From Syntrophorhabdaceae bacterium (GTDB lineage: Bacteria; Desulfobacterota; Syntrophorhabdia; Syntrophorhabdales; Syntrophorhabdaceae), in NCBI GenBank assembly GCA_963666485.2, contig CAXXUO010000001.1, forward strand, positions 1,216,001 to 1,280,000: a stretch of 64,000 nt of DNA. Direction: 5' to 3'. The position numbers and the translations under genes are program-made. The notes beneath the pieces were generated by a model, which was not told the DNA's origin, searched no databases, and worked only from the letters and a program-made list of their open reading frames with translations. Shown piece after piece: positions 44,415-51,151 of this stretch (position 1 is its first letter; every line of letters begins with the position of its first letter).

Positions 44415-44864
44415 TTATCCATTATTATTTTTTTCAAAGGCATCAATCTTGGCTATCCTGCCGCTGTGCCTTCCGCCTTCGAATTCCGCGGAGAGCCAGG
44501 ACCTTACGATCTCTTCGGCGAGACCTTTTCCCGTTACCCGCTCGCCGAGGACGAGCACGTTCGCGTCGAGGTGCTTGCGGCTCTGGACGGCCGTATAGGT
44601 ATCGAACGCAAGGGCGGCACGGACGCCTTTTACCTTGTTCGCAACAACGCTCATCCCCATGCCGGTGCCGCAGACGAGTATCCCGCGGTCGGCCTGCCCC
44701 GCCGCGACAGCTTGAGCGACCTTGAAACCGTAATCAGGATAGTCGACGGACTCGGGGGAATGCGTCCCGTGATCCGTGACCTCATAATCTCCCCCGGCAA
44801 GGAGCTTTTTTATGTATTCTTTCAATTCCAGGCCCGCATGATCGGACCCGATGGCTATCTTCAC
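44415..44864 (-). CDS. rpiB: Ribose-5-phosphate isomerase B
   Basis: GSDHAG, DYPD, CGTGMG and FEGGRH motifs. Confidence 0.96.
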
Positions 44865-46102
44865 CCGCTGAACCTCTTCATGGCCAGGACACAGTTTGTC
44901 CCGCCGAATCCAAAAGAATCGGAAAGAGCGACATCGATCACGTGGTTCCGGGCCTGGTTCGGGACATAGTCCAGGTCGCAGTCAGGATCGGGTGTCTCAT
45001 AGTTGATCGTCGGCGGGCAGACCTGGTCCCTGATCGCAAGCGTCGTGAAGATCGCCTCGATTGCACCGGCCGCGCCGAGCAGGTGGCCCGTCATGGACTT
45101 CGTGGAACTGACGGGAAGCTTGTACGCCCTGTCACCGAAGACTTTCTTGACCGCGAGGGTCTCCGTCTGATCGTTGAGGTCTGTGGACGTGCCGTGCGCG
45201 TTGATGTAGTTTACGGAGTCGGGGTTTAAGCCCGCATCTCTGAGCGCCATGTTGATGCAGCGGATAAAACCGTCGCCGTCAGGGCAGGGTGCTGTTATAT
45301 GATATGCATCCCCGTTGTACCCGTAGCCGACCAGTTCGGCGTATATCTTCGCCCCGCGCGCTTTCGCACGCTCGAGCTCCTCGAGAATGACTATACCGGC
45401 CCCCTCGGCGACAACGAACCCGTCCCGGTCCTTATCGAAGGGGCGCGAAGCCCTCTGGGGCTCGTCATTTCTCGTGGAAAGCGCCTTCATAGCGTTAAAC
45501 CCGCCGACTGTCAGCGGTGTGATATTGGCCTCGCATCCGCCGGCAACCATTATGTCTGCATCACCGTACTGTATGATGCGCATGGCGTCCCCTATGGAAT
45601 GCGCTCCTGTGGCACATGCCGTAACGATCGAAAGGTTGGGGCCTTTCATACCGTGGTTTATTGCGATATGGCCGGGCGCCTCATTGGCGATCAGCATCGG
45701 GATAAAGAACGGAGATATCCGCCCCGGTCCCCTTTCGAGGTACACGCTGTGGTATTTTTCGAGCGTCGGAAGGCCGCCAAGGCCGGTCCCGACGACAACA
45801 CCGGCGCGCTCCGCATCCTCTTTCGCCATGTCGAGGCCGGAGTCGTTCATCGCTATCTTCGTCGCGGCGAGTGCGTACTGGATGAAAAGATCCATCCTCT
45901 TGATCTCTTTGACCGAGATAAATTCATCGGCCTTGAAATCCTTTACCTCGCCGGCTATCTTCGTTTCATGTTGTGTCGTGTCAAATCTGGTCAGCGGTGC
46001 GATCCCCGATTCCCCGTTGAGGATCCGTTTCCAGACATTATCAATGCCTACGCCCAGGGGCGTTACAAGACCGACACCGGTAATGACAACCCTTCTTTTC
46101 AA
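44861..46102 (-). CDS. fabF: 3-oxoacyl-ACP synthase II
   Basis: TACATG, NAHGTST and GHLLGAAG motifs. Confidence 0.97.
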
Positions 46103-46120: not shown

Positions 46121-46363
46121 TTATTTGCCTGCCAGACGGTCTTCTATGTATTTTATCGCATCTCCGACCGTTTCCATCTTCTCGGCGTCTTCGTCCGGGA
46201 TCTCAATGCTGTACTCGTCTTCGAGTGCCATGATAAGCTCAACGATATCGAGAGAATCTGCGCCGAGGTCATCGATGAACTTTGCTTCCGGAACGACTTC
46301 TGATTCGCTTACCCCGAGCTGATCCACAATCATCTTTTTTACTTTTTCGGTTACTGACGACAT
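46121..46363 (-). CDS. acpP: Acyl carrier protein
   Basis: DLGADSLD motif; GGAGG Shine-Dalgarno before ATG 46363. Confidence 0.97.
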
Positions 46364-46447: not shown

Positions 46448-47173
46448 CTACATATACATTCCGCCATTTACGTTTATTACTTCGCCCGTAATATAGCTGC
46501 TCAAGTCCGAAAGCAGGAAATACACCACCTTCGCGACATCCTCAGGCTCACCAAGGCGCTTTAAGGGGATCACCTCGTGTATGGTCTGCTTCATCTTCTC
46601 GTCCAGGATATCCGTCATTTTTGTACGGATGAACCCGGGCGCGACAACGTTGACCCTGATCGACCGCTCTGCATATTCGCGTGCGACGCTTTTCGTAAAC
46701 CCGATGATCCCTGCCTTGCTCGCGGCGTAGTTTGCCTGCCCGGGATTACCCATAACGCCCGCGACCGAAGAGATATTGACTATCGCCCCGCCGGTCCTCA
46801 GCATGTGTTTGACGACCGCCCGGGTACAGTTGAAGACGCTCTTGAGATTGACGCTCATTATCCGGTCCCAGTCCTCTTCCTTCATCCGGACGAGGAGCTT
46901 ATCTATCGTGATGCCCGCGTTGTTCACGAGATTGTCGATCTTTCCCATGTCCTTCGCGGTCTGGTCAATCGCTGCTGCCACCGCCTGGAAATCGGATACG
47001 TCCACATGATAAAAAGAACACCGCCTCCCCTTGCCCTGAATCGCGGCAACAGTTTCGGATCCGTCAATTATATCAAAGATAACTATATCGCTTCCTTTGT
47101 CGGCGAGCATCTCGGCGATCGACCTGCCGATCCCCTGGGCTGCGCCGGTCACGATGGTAACTTTTCCGTTCAT
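46448..47173 (-). CDS. fabG: 3-oxoacyl-ACP reductase
   Basis: TGAAQGIG, NNAGIT and GQANYAASK motifs. Confidence 0.96.
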   Translation of the reverse strand: MNGKVTIVTGAAQGIGRSIAEMLADKGSDIVIFDIIDGSETVAAIQGKGRRCSFYHVDVSDFQAVAAAIDQTAKDMGKIDNLVNNAGITIDKLLVRMKEEDWDRIMSVNLKSVFNCTRAVVKHMLRTGGAIVNISSVAGVMGNPGQANYAASKAGIIGFTKSVAREYAERSIRVNVVAPGFIRTKMTDILDEKMKQTIHEVIPLKRLGEPEDVAKVVYFLLSDLSSYITGEVINVNGGMYM

Positions 47174-48108
47174 GCAAGGATCCCCTTCGCGGATTCAATA
47201 TCGTCGAATTTTTCCACGCTTATGCATGCGATACCCGGGACGATCCTCTTGACGAGATTGGAAAGCACCTTCTGGGGGCCGACCTCAAGGATGGCCTCGA
47301 TGCCCTCGTCGGCCATTTTCTTGACCGAACGCTCCCACTGAACAGGGGAGAACATCTGGCGGTACAGCTTGTCGTCGACATCCGCCTTCTCTTTGCCCGG
47401 CGTCGCATCGACATTGAACACGACCGGAACGGCAAGATCGCCATGGCTTAAGCCGGCGAGCTCGGTTTTCAGCCGGTCCGCCGCCGCCTTCATGAGAGGC
47501 GAATGGAACGGGCCGGAAACGTTGAGGAAGACGGCCTTCTTGTAACCGGTTCCTTTGAGTTTTTCGACCGCCTCTTTCAAGGCTTCGGCGTCTCCCGAGA
47601 GAACGACCTGTTCCGCTGAATTGAGGTTTGCCGGGACCGCGACGTAATCATCGTGAGATATCTCCGCAAGGACAGGCTCTATCTTCGCCATGTCGGCGCC
47701 GATCAGGGCCACCATCCCGCCTTTTCCCTTCGGGCAGGCCTCTTCCATGAGCAGGCCCCTCTTTCTCGTGATCGCGATAGCCTCTTCAAATGTGAAGAAC
47801 CCGCTTGCCGTAAGCGCGGTATATTCGCCGAGGCTGTGGCCGGCAACGAGAGCGGGTACAAGCCCGGTCTCTTTCTTTAAAACCTGGTAGACGGCATAAC
47901 TTACGAGAAGAAGGGACGGCTGGGTATTGTACGTCTGCCTGAGCTCGTCATCGGGCCCGTTAAAGCACAGGTTTGTGATAGAAGAGCCCAGGACCCGGTC
48001 GGCCGCCGCGAACAGGTCGCGGACGTAGTCGAACCTGTCGTAGAGGTCCTTTCCCATGCCGATATACTGGGACCCCTGTCCCGGAAATACTATTCCTGTT
48101 TTTTTCAT
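47170..48108 (-). CDS. fabD: Malonyl-CoA:ACP transacylase
   Basis: FPGQGSQ, GHSLGEY and VSGPFHS motifs. Confidence 0.96.
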   Translation of the reverse strand: MKKTGIVFPGQGSQYIGMGKDLYDRFDYVRDLFAAADRVLGSSITNLCFNGPDDELRQTYNTQPSLLLVSYAVYQVLKKETGLVPALVAGHSLGEYTALTASGFFTFEEAIAITRKRGLLMEEACPKGKGGMVALIGADMAKIEPVLAEISHDDYVAVPANLNSAEQVVLSGDAEALKEAVEKLKGTGYKKAVFLNVSGPFHSPLMKAAADRLKTELAGLSHGDLAVPVVFNVDATPGKEKADVDDKLYRQMFSPVQWERSVKKMADEGIEAILEVGPQKVLSNLVKRIVPGIACISVEKFDDIESAKGILA

Positions 48109-48164: not shown

Positions 48165-49328
48165 TTATGATCTTTTCTTCTGGGCCGATTGCTTGATAAG
48201 CTCGAGCCCGATAATGTTCCTCTGGATCTGGTTCGTCCCCTCGTATATCTGGAGGATCTTCGCGTCGCGCATCATCTTCTCGACGGGGTACTCTTTCATG
48301 TACCCGTAGCCGCCGAAGACCTGTATCGCGTCGACGACGACCTTCATGGCCACGTCACTGGGAAAGACCTTGCTCATGGCAGATACCTTCGAGAAATCCT
48401 TGGGATTGCTGTCGATATACCTCGCCACTGCATATACGAATGCCCGTGCCGCCTCGACCTGGATCGCCATGTCGGCCAGCATATGCTGTATTGCCTGAAA
48501 AGAAATTATTTTCTTTTCGAACTGCTCTCTTTCACGCGCATACTGTACGGCTGCCTCGAGTGCGGCGTGGGCCACCCCGACCGCCTGCGCACCGATACCC
48601 GGGCGCGTCCTGTCGAACGTCCTCATGGTCAGGATAAAGCCCAGACCTTCTCTACCTATAACATTTTCCTTCGGAACTTTGCAATCCTGAAATACCAGCT
48701 CACGAGTGGCTGATGCCCTGATCCCGAGCTTGTTCTCCTTCTTGCCGAAAGTGAAGCCATCCATGCCTTTTTCAAGGATAAATGCGGTCGCGCCGCGGCC
48801 GCCTTTGCTGCGGTCCGTCATCGCGATCACGGTGTAGATCTCGGCCTCGCCGCCGTTCGTTATCCATTGTTTTGTACCGTTGAGAATATAATAGTCCCCG
48901 TCCTTTTTCGCCTCGGTCCGGATGCCCTGCGCGTCGGAGCCGGCATTTGCCTCGGTGATGCCGAACGCGGCCAGCTTTTCACCGCTCGCTATCAGGGGCA
49001 GGTATTTCTTTTTCAGTTCCTCGGACGCACCAAGGAGAATAGGGTACGCGCCGAGAAGGCTGGCGGCATAGCTCACGGATACGCCGAGGCACGCCTTGCT
49101 GAGCTCCTCGACAACGATGCAGTTCTCAAACGTCCCGCCTCCCGTTCCCCCGTACTCCTCGGGAATGCTGACGCCGAAAAGCCCGGCCTGGGCGCAGTGC
49201 TTCATTATCTCCCAGGGGAACTGCTGGCTCTCGTCGAGCTCGGCCCTGATGGGCAAGATCTTTTCCTCGGCTATCTTGCGCGACAGTTTCTGGATGTTTT
49301 TTTGATCTTCAGATAAAAAATAATCCAT
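48165..49328 (-). CDS. Acyl-CoA dehydrogenase (short-chain/butyryl-CoA type)
   Basis: AFGITEANAGSD, LNGTKQWITNG, KLGIRAS, GGYGY and IYEGTNQIQR motifs. Confidence 0.95.
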   Translation of the reverse strand: MDYFLSEDQKNIQKLSRKIAEEKILPIRAELDESQQFPWEIMKHCAQAGLFGVSIPEEYGGTGGGTFENCIVVEELSKACLGVSVSYAASLLGAYPILLGASEELKKKYLPLIASGEKLAAFGITEANAGSDAQGIRTEAKKDGDYYILNGTKQWITNGGEAEIYTVIAMTDRSKGGRGATAFILEKGMDGFTFGKKENKLGIRASATRELVFQDCKVPKENVIGREGLGFILTMRTFDRTRPGIGAQAVGVAHAALEAAVQYAREREQFEKKIISFQAIQHMLADMAIQVEAARAFVYAVARYIDSNPKDFSKVSAMSKVFPSDVAMKVVVDAIQVFGGYGYMKEYPVEKMMRDAKILQIYEGTNQIQRNIIGLELIKQSAQKKRS

Positions 49329-49331
49329 ATA

Positions 49332-50342
49332 TTATCTCTCCTTGACTTTCTGCATCATCTGGTGGTCCTGCATCGTCTCGTTTATCGATTCCCTGAGGCC
49401 TTTCTCCACGAATTTCTTCGCGAGGAGGATCGCGTTGCGCATGGCCTTTGCATTTGATTTCCCATGGCAAATGATCGAAACCCCGTCAACGCCGAGAAGC
49501 GGTGCCCCGCCGGTCTCAGAGTAATCCGCCTTCTTCTGGAATTCCTTGAAAATGTCTTTCAGGAGGACATACCCGATCTTTGCCTTCAGGCTTTTTTCGA
49601 TACCGTTCCTGAAGAACTCAAAGATCAGGTCCGCCACACCTTCGCTAATCTTCAGTGCGATGTTCCCGACAAAACCATCGCTCACCACGATGTCGGTCCT
49701 GCCGTTGTACATGTCAGTCCCTTCGACATAGCCGAGATAATTGAGACCGAACTCTTTTATCAGGGCATGCGCGTCGCGCGTCAGCTCGTTGCCTTTTGTT
49801 TCCTCTTCGCCGTTGGATAATATCCCGATCCGGGGAGAATCTATCCCCAGGACGGAAGAGGCAAATGCGTTCCCCATCAGGGCGAACTGGGCGAGATGGG
49901 TGGGTTTGCAGTCGACGGTGCCCCCGGCGTCGAGAAGTATGGAAACCCCGTCCCCGATGCGGGGATGGATCGTGGCAATGGCCGGCCTGTCAACCCCCGG
50001 GGTCCGGCCCAGCGTAAAAATGGCGAACGCCATGGCCGCACCGGAATTTCCCGCTGATACCACTGCGTCGACCTCACCCGCCTTGTGCAGCTCGAAGGCG
50101 CGGTTCATCGATGAATCGCGTTTCTTCCGCAGTGCATTGGACGGGGATTCGTTCATTTCCACGCAGACGGGTGTGTGGACCATATCGAGGTTGACCGTGT
50201 CCGTCAGGTGGGGCTTCATTTTTTCGACATCGCCGACAAGAACTATCGATGCGAGGCCATCGCGGGAAACTGATTGTGCACCTTTAACGATCTCAAGGGG
50301 GGCAAAATCGCCGCCCATTCCGTCAACGGCAATCCGTATCAT
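49332..50342 (-). CDS. plsX: Phosphate acyltransferase PlsX
   Basis: AVDGMGGDFAP, SAGNSGA, DGFVGN and GGAPLLG motifs. Confidence 0.96.
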   Translation of the reverse strand: MIRIAVDGMGGDFAPLEIVKGAQSVSRDGLASIVLVGDVEKMKPHLTDTVNLDMVHTPVCVEMNESPSNALRKKRDSSMNRAFELHKAGEVDAVVSAGNSGAAMAFAIFTLGRTPGVDRPAIATIHPRIGDGVSILLDAGGTVDCKPTHLAQFALMGNAFASSVLGIDSPRIGILSNGEEETKGNELTRDAHALIKEFGLNYLGYVEGTDMYNGRTDIVVSDGFVGNIALKISEGVADLIFEFFRNGIEKSLKAKIGYVLLKDIFKEFQKKADYSETGGAPLLGVDGVSIICHGKSNAKAMRNAILLAKKFVEKGLRESINETMQDHQMMQKVKER

Positions 50343-50544: not shown

Positions 50545-51060
50545 TTAATTTAAGAAAGATTTCAACTTTTCCCCGAGAAGGCTCAAGGGCGCCTCGGGAC
50601 AATCGCATTTTTCACTATTCCTGTTCTTTCCACACTGGGGGCATATGCCTTTACATGCCTCGCTGCACAGCGGCCGCACGGGCATGTCGAGCATCACCTC
50701 TTCATAGATGAACGGGTCGATGTCTATCTCATCCCCTTCATAATAATAGATATCGAGGTCTTCGCCATGGAGCTCGAGCTCGGGCGAATCAGGAAGCGCG
50801 GTGCCGGGCACGAGCTTGATGGACATCGTGAGATCGAGCTCGACGTCGAATTCCTCGAGACACCGCCCGCATTCCAGTGAAGCGGCGACATGCACGGGAC
50901 CGTCTATCGCCACGGTATCGTCGAACTTCGACACCGTGAGCTCATAGCTCACCGGCTGCAGCAGTTTGAGGTCCGTGTCGCCCAGCTGCTTGAATCGCGT
51001 AATATCCATCTCCCCCTTCAGGACCTGTGTGTCTTCAATTTCCGAAAGTCGTAGTAACAA
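50545..51060 (-). CDS. DUF177/YceD-family protein
   Basis: ECGRCL and PLCSEACKGICPQCG motifs; upstream of rpmF. Confidence 0.92.
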   Translation of the reverse strand: MLLRLSEIEDTQVLKGEMDITRFKQLGDTDLKLLQPVSYELTVSKFDDTVAIDGPVHVAASLECGRCLEEFDVELDLTMSIKLVPGTALPDSPELELHGEDLDIYYYEGDEIDIDPFIYEEVMLDMPVRPLCSEACKGICPQCGKNRNSEKCDCPEAPLSLLGEKLKSFLN

Positions 51061-51151
51061 AGCTGCCTTCTTTTTAAAGATAGATAATATAAAGAGTTTA
51101 CCGTTTTATTGTCAAGTAAATTAACCTGTTGTAAATGTTGCTCTTTTTAGC

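Follow-up and report, generated by a model that had tools for sequence, protein, structure and literature searches.

The operon and its acyl-CoA dehydrogenase

The window, i.e., the whole 64-kb stretch of DNA analysed, carries on its minus strand an operon in which a gene for an acyl-CoA dehydrogenase (ACAD) is located between plsX and fabD. An earlier note on this DNA had given the order as yceD-rpmF-plsX-ACAD-fabD-fabG-acpP-fabF, which was borne out by the coordinates and by scores above the NCBIfam cut-offs, with yceD placed by position. This first, yceD/DUF177-like gene (50545..51060) had no NCBIfam match and owes its name to its position, which is upstream of rpmF in the relatives too. 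It is followed by rpmF for ribosomal protein L32 (50349..50531; TIGR01031, score 82 against a cut-off of 23), plsX for phosphate acyltransferase (49332..50342; TIGR00182, 358 against 243), the ACAD gene (48165..49328; 387 aa), fabD for malonyl-CoA:ACP transacylase (47170..48108; TIGR00128, 328 against 261), fabG for 3-oxoacyl-ACP reductase (46448..47173; TIGR01830, 322 against 298), acpP for acyl carrier protein (46121..46360; TIGR00517, 114 against 70) and fabF for beta-ketoacyl-ACP synthase II (44861..46102; TIGR03150, 665 against 494). Downstream of fabF, rpiB, which scored above its NCBIfam cut-off, and then glyA follow on the same strand. The ATG of the ACAD gene lies exactly 3 nt (TAT) beyond the plsX stop, as had been reported, and its Shine-Dalgarno-like AAGGAG sits in the 3' end of plsX; a gap of 56 nt lies between the end of the ACAD gene and fabD. 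Upstream of yceD, a sigma-70-like promoter match (TTGACA-18-TATATT, 11/12; 51086..51115, minus strand) was found, which is a consensus match only; the six sigma-70-like sites found compare with 4.2 in shuffles, a count that is not significant. Because the operon arrangement is kept across the order, it is not a matter of chance.

An AlphaFold2 model of the ACAD (pLDDT 93.9) was matched by Foldseek to 4L1F, 1BUC and MCAD with a TM of 0.95, identifying the ACAD fold. The glutamate of the IYEGT motif pointed out earlier is indeed kept and corresponds to the catalytic E363 (YEG), which, together with R242 of helix G, is invariant in 169/169 sequences of the clade described below. Syntrophorhabdus and Syntrophorhabdaceae are the sources of close named homologues, and the nearest structures are short-chain CoA enzymes, with an identity to Bcd of about 48-49%. 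None of the 22 curated NCBIfam families matched was reached at its cut-off, AcrC being the best (429, cut-off 640), and the protein stayed below every cut-off of the named equivalogs, i.e., AcrC, cyclohexanecarbonyl-CoA DH, glutaryl-CoA DH, PigA, RedW and MbtN.

A helix E insertion and an isoleucine after the helix G arginine are marks of a short-chain pocket, and their absence deepens the pocket and favours longer chains. The ACAD, like MCAD, has one residue fewer in helix E than Bcd or CarC, and the Bcd-type insertion is absent in 169/169 clade sequences. The residue after R242 is proline (P243) in 147/169 clade sequences, where Bcd has isoleucine, and small residues occupy positions 84 and 88. 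In these marks the ACAD resembles MCAD more closely than Bcd. Conserved basic columns of the clade comprise R28, K/R173, K175, R178, R226, K/R236 and R303, some of which are common to CoA enzymes. No ACP-specific sequence signature was found in the ACAD, and K/R236 and K197 occur in CarC and Bcd as well. A complex prediction with two ACAD copies and AcpP gave a score of 0.00, which was obtained without folded controls and counts neither way. Judged from its genomic context, the protein is a candidate enoyl-ACP reductase fed by an electron-transfer flavoprotein (ETF).

Conservation in the order and related genes of the host genome

An ACAD orthologue (80-98% identity) is present in 39/40 relatives of the order; the exception (G033) is without plsX too. 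The order plsX-ACAD-fabD occurs in 30/30 loci, the own locus included, and the other 10 loci of the order are consistent, two of them stopping at contig edges and one being frameshifted. The synteny that the earlier note had asked about is therefore kept order-wide and not specific to this strain. Across families, the ACAD retains 80-85% identity, compared to 58-68% for plsX.

The window is without fabH or fabI, as had been stated, and both genes are located elsewhere in the host genome (G000; 99% complete, contamination 3.75%). A canonical fabH lies at C3:168537 (TIGR00747, 385 bits against a cut-off of 292), and the genome also has two divergent FabH-like genes and fabZ. Among the relatives, fabH was found in 37/40 and in 30/30 of the near-complete ones, with 72-94% identity. 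The suggestion of FabH-independent initiation is contradicted by these genes. The ACAD as a substitute for FabH was likewise rejected, as fabH is present in the host and its relatives and adjoins the ACAD gene, directly preceding it in 18/40 of the loci inspected across the phylum and lying near it in 29/80 named loci. What had been called the fabH slot thus holds as a position between plsX and fabD but not as a substitution. Directly after fabH, within G000:C3:168537-171308, a large serine recombinase gene was observed; the relocated fabH possibly flanks an integration site.

The proximity of the two genes would also suit a role at the CoA level, in which the ACAD and ETF reduce crotonyl-CoA or branched enoyl-CoA to butyryl- or isovaleryl-CoA as primers for FabH; the earlier note had raised primer supply as its second option, though for initiation without FabH. 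Such a primer supply would agree with the short-chain CoA enzymes among the closest structures and with FabH being kept in the order as strongly as the ACAD. On the other hand, the shortened helix E and the prevalent P243 would make for a deeper pocket, and a supply of primers leaves unexplained both the exclusion between FabI and the clade and the 45/80 tested genomes in which no known enoyl reductase was matched, as described below. We consider this role unlikely.

The host genome further encodes a PRK07533-type FabI (G000:C1:602397-603212; score 420, cut-off 337), and therefore the ACAD need not be the genome's sole enoyl reductase. The earlier note had named an ordinary fabH plus an enoyl-ACP reductase as evidence against its proposal; fabH and FabI are both present, while FabK was not found above its cut-off. 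The fabI gene is arranged tail-to-tail with genes that, judged by eye, encode subunits of an ADP-forming acyl-CoA ligase, as it is in 5/7 FabI-bearing relatives. An NMO-family protein of the host (gene at G000:C1:183761) missed the FabK cut-off by a wide margin and has the FabX-type structure 7E1Q as its best match (E 2e-65, compared to 1e-16 for FabK). According to the FabX paper, in which the code 7E1Q occurs, the reactions of FabX and FabK run in opposite directions, FabX being a dehydrogenating enzyme (PMC8626469). The C-terminal cysteines of the host's FabX-like protein (299, 316, 327 and 329) are spaced unlike those of FabX. Its gene belongs to a cluster (G000:C1:179600-184888) with a second ACP-like gene, a methyltransferase gene, a gene for a 715-aa protein and a divergent FabH-like gene, which suggests an accessory lipid pathway. 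A FabV search of the host genome gave no match, with the controls silent too, although the FabV family did match in 1/401 genomes.

Among the 40 relatives, FabI occurs in 7, unlinked to the fab genes, and a PF03060 protein in 33. In family f4, whose members are 96-98% complete, FabI and PF03060 were each found in 0/3 genomes, and the 11 SDR sequences scanned, which remained from 17 matches once three fabG genes of the operons and three fragments had been set aside, included none with a FabI or FabL score. The distribution of the ACAD in the order is that of a core gene, whereas FabI is sporadic.

The ACAD clade, its etf genes and the distribution of enoyl-ACP reductases

We sampled 400 Desulfobacterota genomes and scored the best ACAD candidates of each, at most four per genome. 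A match was obtained in 243/400 genomes at E<=1e-110 and in 180/400 at E<=1e-150, the strict threshold for the clade, and the clade formed a single branch against 11 other ACADs (FastTree support 99). In several genomes (e.g., G097, G105, G110, G165), the clade ACAD was the sole ACAD candidate in the first search. Loci inspected were 15 top ones and 40 wider ones, the latter picked across families among 150 places listed; plsX or fab genes lay beside the ACAD gene in 15/15 and 39/40 of these, respectively, the gene being placed after plsX, after fabH or after fabF. The best 80 named loci, from Nitrospirota, Margulisbacteria, Bacillota, Spirochaetota and other phyla, included a plsX or fab gene in 51/80, etf in 37/80 and a ferredoxin domain in 33/80, and 29/80 homologues (Kiritimatiellia, Cloacimonadota, some Nitrospirota and Bacillota) had no plsX or fab gene in the flank fetched. 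Clade ACADs with neither etf nor fab genes were seen in nine loci of the Kiritimatiellia/Verrucomicrobiota type (L191, L199, L201, L206, L207, L215, L220, L223, L231), and in both loci inspected from family f29, ACAD-etfB-etfA stood outside any fab operon. Five apparent absences of the gene were checked within clade-bearing families: three genomes hold a cut or fragmented gene, in two cases right after plsX, and two are also without plsX, so that no case of replacement by another reductase emerged.

The genes etfB and etfA come directly after the ACAD gene in 27/40 phylum loci, with an N-terminal ferredoxin domain in etfA in 21. The fab-linked EtfB proteins of other lineages share a GKQAIDGDTAQV-type motif with CarD and Bcd-Etf, and the one tested (L117) was closest to CarD (E 8e-71), its nearest relatives being CarD and Bcd-linked Etfs. 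A co-encoded EtfAB is absent from the host operon and from 34/34 loci of a sub-clade with fabD or fabG after the ACAD gene. These 34 loci form one branch (SH-aLRT 94) inside 53 etf-linked rows, in a tree from which loci without etf and with an unclear downstream flank, including several from Nitrospirota and Margulisbacteria, had been left out. As the etf-less loci form one branch within the etf-linked rows, the tree suggests that the sub-clade lost its operon ETF once. Five loci (L179, L187, L203, L225, L248) were observed to be fab operons with both an ACAD-etf module and an NMO-family gene; both can thus coexist.

The host genome has four ETF pairs, and an N-terminal ferredoxin domain is absent from all four EtfA proteins. 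Nearest to the fab-linked ETFs, at 40-47% identity, is the pair at G000:C4:12400-14198, which lies behind thiolase and crotonase-like genes and is kept through most of the order. Its EtfB gave E 2e-53 to CarD and similar Etfs, compared to 1e-25 to 1e-30 to the human and Paracoccus ETF; it reads GKQSTDGNTGVV, departing from the motif of the fab-linked EtfBs, and in an EtfB tree by a quick method this order-wide EtfB fell on a long branch of unsupported placement. Besides the operon ACAD, the host has 7 further ACAD matches; two near-identical copies (G000:C2:344708-345874 and C3:310268-311422) are possibly an assembly duplicate.

For the distribution of reductases, FabI, FabK/PF03060 (NMO) and FabV were searched; FabI was counted at E<=1e-40, and one weaker match at 1e-33 was dropped. 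FabI was detected in 68/400 genomes and occurred together with the clade in only 3, all of which belong to the host's order. Outside the order, the clade was present in 0/65 FabI genomes and 0/24 FabI families, where about 8 families would be expected; as kin are not independent, p-values for this exclusion are overstated. FabK exceeded its cut-off in 4 genomes (0/4 with the clade), and the single FabV genome carries the clade. A total of 98 clade genomes outside the order had no FabI, FabK-like or FabV match; of the 80 searched for PF03060, 45 were without any such protein and 35 had one, and families f14, f18, f41, f46 and f53 were wholly PF03060-free as sampled. FabK-like proteins (E<=1e-60) occurred in 68/180 clade genomes. 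FabI and FabK-like matches were both missing from 63/220 genomes below the strict clade threshold, some of which have divergent clade members, indicating that reductases beyond the families searched exist. Across genomes, the clade appears to stand in for FabI, FabK and FabV, with the host's own genome, 7/40 relatives and G173 as exceptions.

The same operon layout is found in Syntrophobacter fumaroxidans, which is in culture and for which proteomic data exist; here, Sfum_1369 (L32), Sfum_1371 ('butyryl-CoA dehydrogenase'), 1372-1373 (Etf), 1374 (FabG), 1375 (FabF) and 1377 (GlyA) have been listed (PMC5947623). Sfum_1371 was equated with the clade ACAD by gene order alone, not by sequence. The protein was abundant under all growth conditions, even though neither butyrate nor crotonate supports growth of the organism; levels of the Etf subunits 1372-1373 were lower, while another Etf was abundant (PMC5947623). 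In discussing Sfum_1371, that study reads it as a Bcd/Etf-like energy complex and draws no link there to lipid synthesis (PMC5947623).

An ordinary ACAD of catabolism or energy metabolism that settled permanently in the rpmF-fab operon, with no role in lipid synthesis, would fit the 48-49% identity to Bcd, the homologues of some phyla that are solitary or form ACAD-etfB-etfA at a distance from fab genes, and the many ACADs held by syntrophs, such as the 7 other matches in the host. We regard it as improbable, since the ACAD stays with fab genes at differing positions, is the sole candidate in some genomes and excludes FabI, and since Sfum_1371 in the same position is expressed in an organism using neither butyrate nor crotonate (PMC5947623). 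An acyl-ACP dehydrogenase working in the oxidative direction, making enoyl-ACP for unsaturated fatty acids, would follow the default direction of the ACAD family; ACP-acting ACADs exist, with the prolyl-ACP dehydrogenase 4IRN among the structure matches, and FabX offers a precedent for dehydrogenation on ACP (PMC8626469). A dehydrogenase would still need a reductase, though, and should co-occur with FabI rather than exclude it, the fab-linked EtfB is nearest to CarD and Bcd-linked Etfs, and a FabX-like gene is already present in the host; this direction is therefore very improbable. None of the primer, catabolic and oxidative readings explains the exclusion of FabI.

Proposed function and comparison with known systems

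We consider it fairly likely that the ACAD is an ETF-fed enoyl-ACP reductase of type II fatty-acid synthesis. This anabolic role, one of those proposed in the earlier note, gains support from the fab linkage, the etfB-etfA genes in other lineages and the exclusion of FabI, and the clade as a whole probably represents an enoyl-ACP reductase class that is new. Transfer of a hydride at C3 and protonation by glutamate at C2 constitute ACAD chemistry in the reducing direction. In the proposed route, FabH, FabD, FabF, FabG and FabZ would generate trans-2-enoyl-ACP, to which the reduced FAD of the ACAD would donate a hydride at C3 while E363 protonates C2; the FAD would then be re-reduced by the ETF and not directly by NAD(P)H. 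The ancestral operon may have encoded its own EtfB and a ferredoxin-fused EtfA after the ACAD, resembling the bifurcating Bcd/CarCDE type, and bifurcation is plausible for this three-gene form. The sub-clade operon would have lost the etf genes, leaving the ACAD to borrow ETF from elsewhere. As the host operon is without etf, the ACAD probably receives its electrons from a shared ETF pool, for which the EtfAB at G000:C4:12400-14198 is the best candidate. In the host genome, bifurcation is unsupported, given that no EtfA has a ferredoxin domain and that the C4 EtfB departs from the motif.

More tentatively, and less likely than not, the clade may be a widespread reductase class with two modes: an ancestral one with a bifurcating, ferredoxin-fused ETF, yielding reduced ferredoxin in each elongation round, and an ETF-less one in a single Desulfobacterota sub-clade (including Syntrophorhabdales and Syntrophaceae), fed by the ETF pool of catabolic acyl-CoA oxidation. 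Enoyl/acyl couples are near 0 mV. If two such modes exist, lipid synthesis would offer an outlet for high-potential electrons, which syntrophs must otherwise drive uphill through reverse electron transport.

Full-text searches, with subscription journals mostly outside their scope, found no paper describing an ACAD as type II enoyl-ACP reductase, and the ACAD fold is otherwise not known for this step in core fatty-acid synthesis. Many of the strict anaerobes sampled have a fab operon but no recognisable enoyl-ACP reductase; for this gap the clade would provide one candidate that can be tested, and it would link membrane synthesis to ETF-based energy conservation. Annotation would be corrected as well, since clade genes are labelled butyryl-CoA dehydrogenase and may be misread as evidence of butyrate metabolism.

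Among known systems, Bcd/EtfAB (Clostridioides difficile 5OL2, Acidaminococcus fermentans 4L1F, Megasphaera 1BUC) shares with the ACAD the fold (TM 0.95), 48-49% identity and the catalytic glutamate, and carries out physiological enoyl reduction through ETF. It acts on CoA esters in fermentation, whereas the clade ACAD lies among fab genes, has no helix E insertion and reads R-P where Bcd reads R-I. CarCDE of Acetobacterium woodii (6FAH) has the ACAD-etfB-etfA layout common to the clade in other lineages, the L117 EtfB is closest to CarD, and CarE has the same ferredoxin fusion as the EtfA of fab-linked loci; CarC, however, ranks below Bcd and MCAD for the host ACAD, and the host operon, unlike CarCDE, is without etf. 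FabI/FabL, FabK and FabV catalyse the step proposed here, and FabI occurs where the clade is absent, but their folds are unrelated to that of the ACAD, and they take electrons directly from NAD(P)H where the ACAD would use ETF.

PigA, RedW, the prolyl-ACP dehydrogenase 4IRN and MbtN show that the ACAD fold can serve carrier-bound substrates, although in secondary metabolism and in the oxidative direction; against their families the host ACAD scores 254 (PigA, cut-off 500), 257 (RedW, 650) and 81 (MbtN, 700). Helicobacter pylori FabX is likewise a flavoenzyme of type II synthesis with an ACP-bound substrate, acyl-ACP (PMC8626469), but has the NMO fold and works oxidatively, and the host has a separate FabX-like gene at G000:C1:183761. 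By its fold, the ACAD is not a FabI, FabK or FabV, and although it falls outside Bcd-Etf and CarCDE as named families by its pocket marks and its etf-less operon, it is a candidate for an enzyme that works like these two systems.
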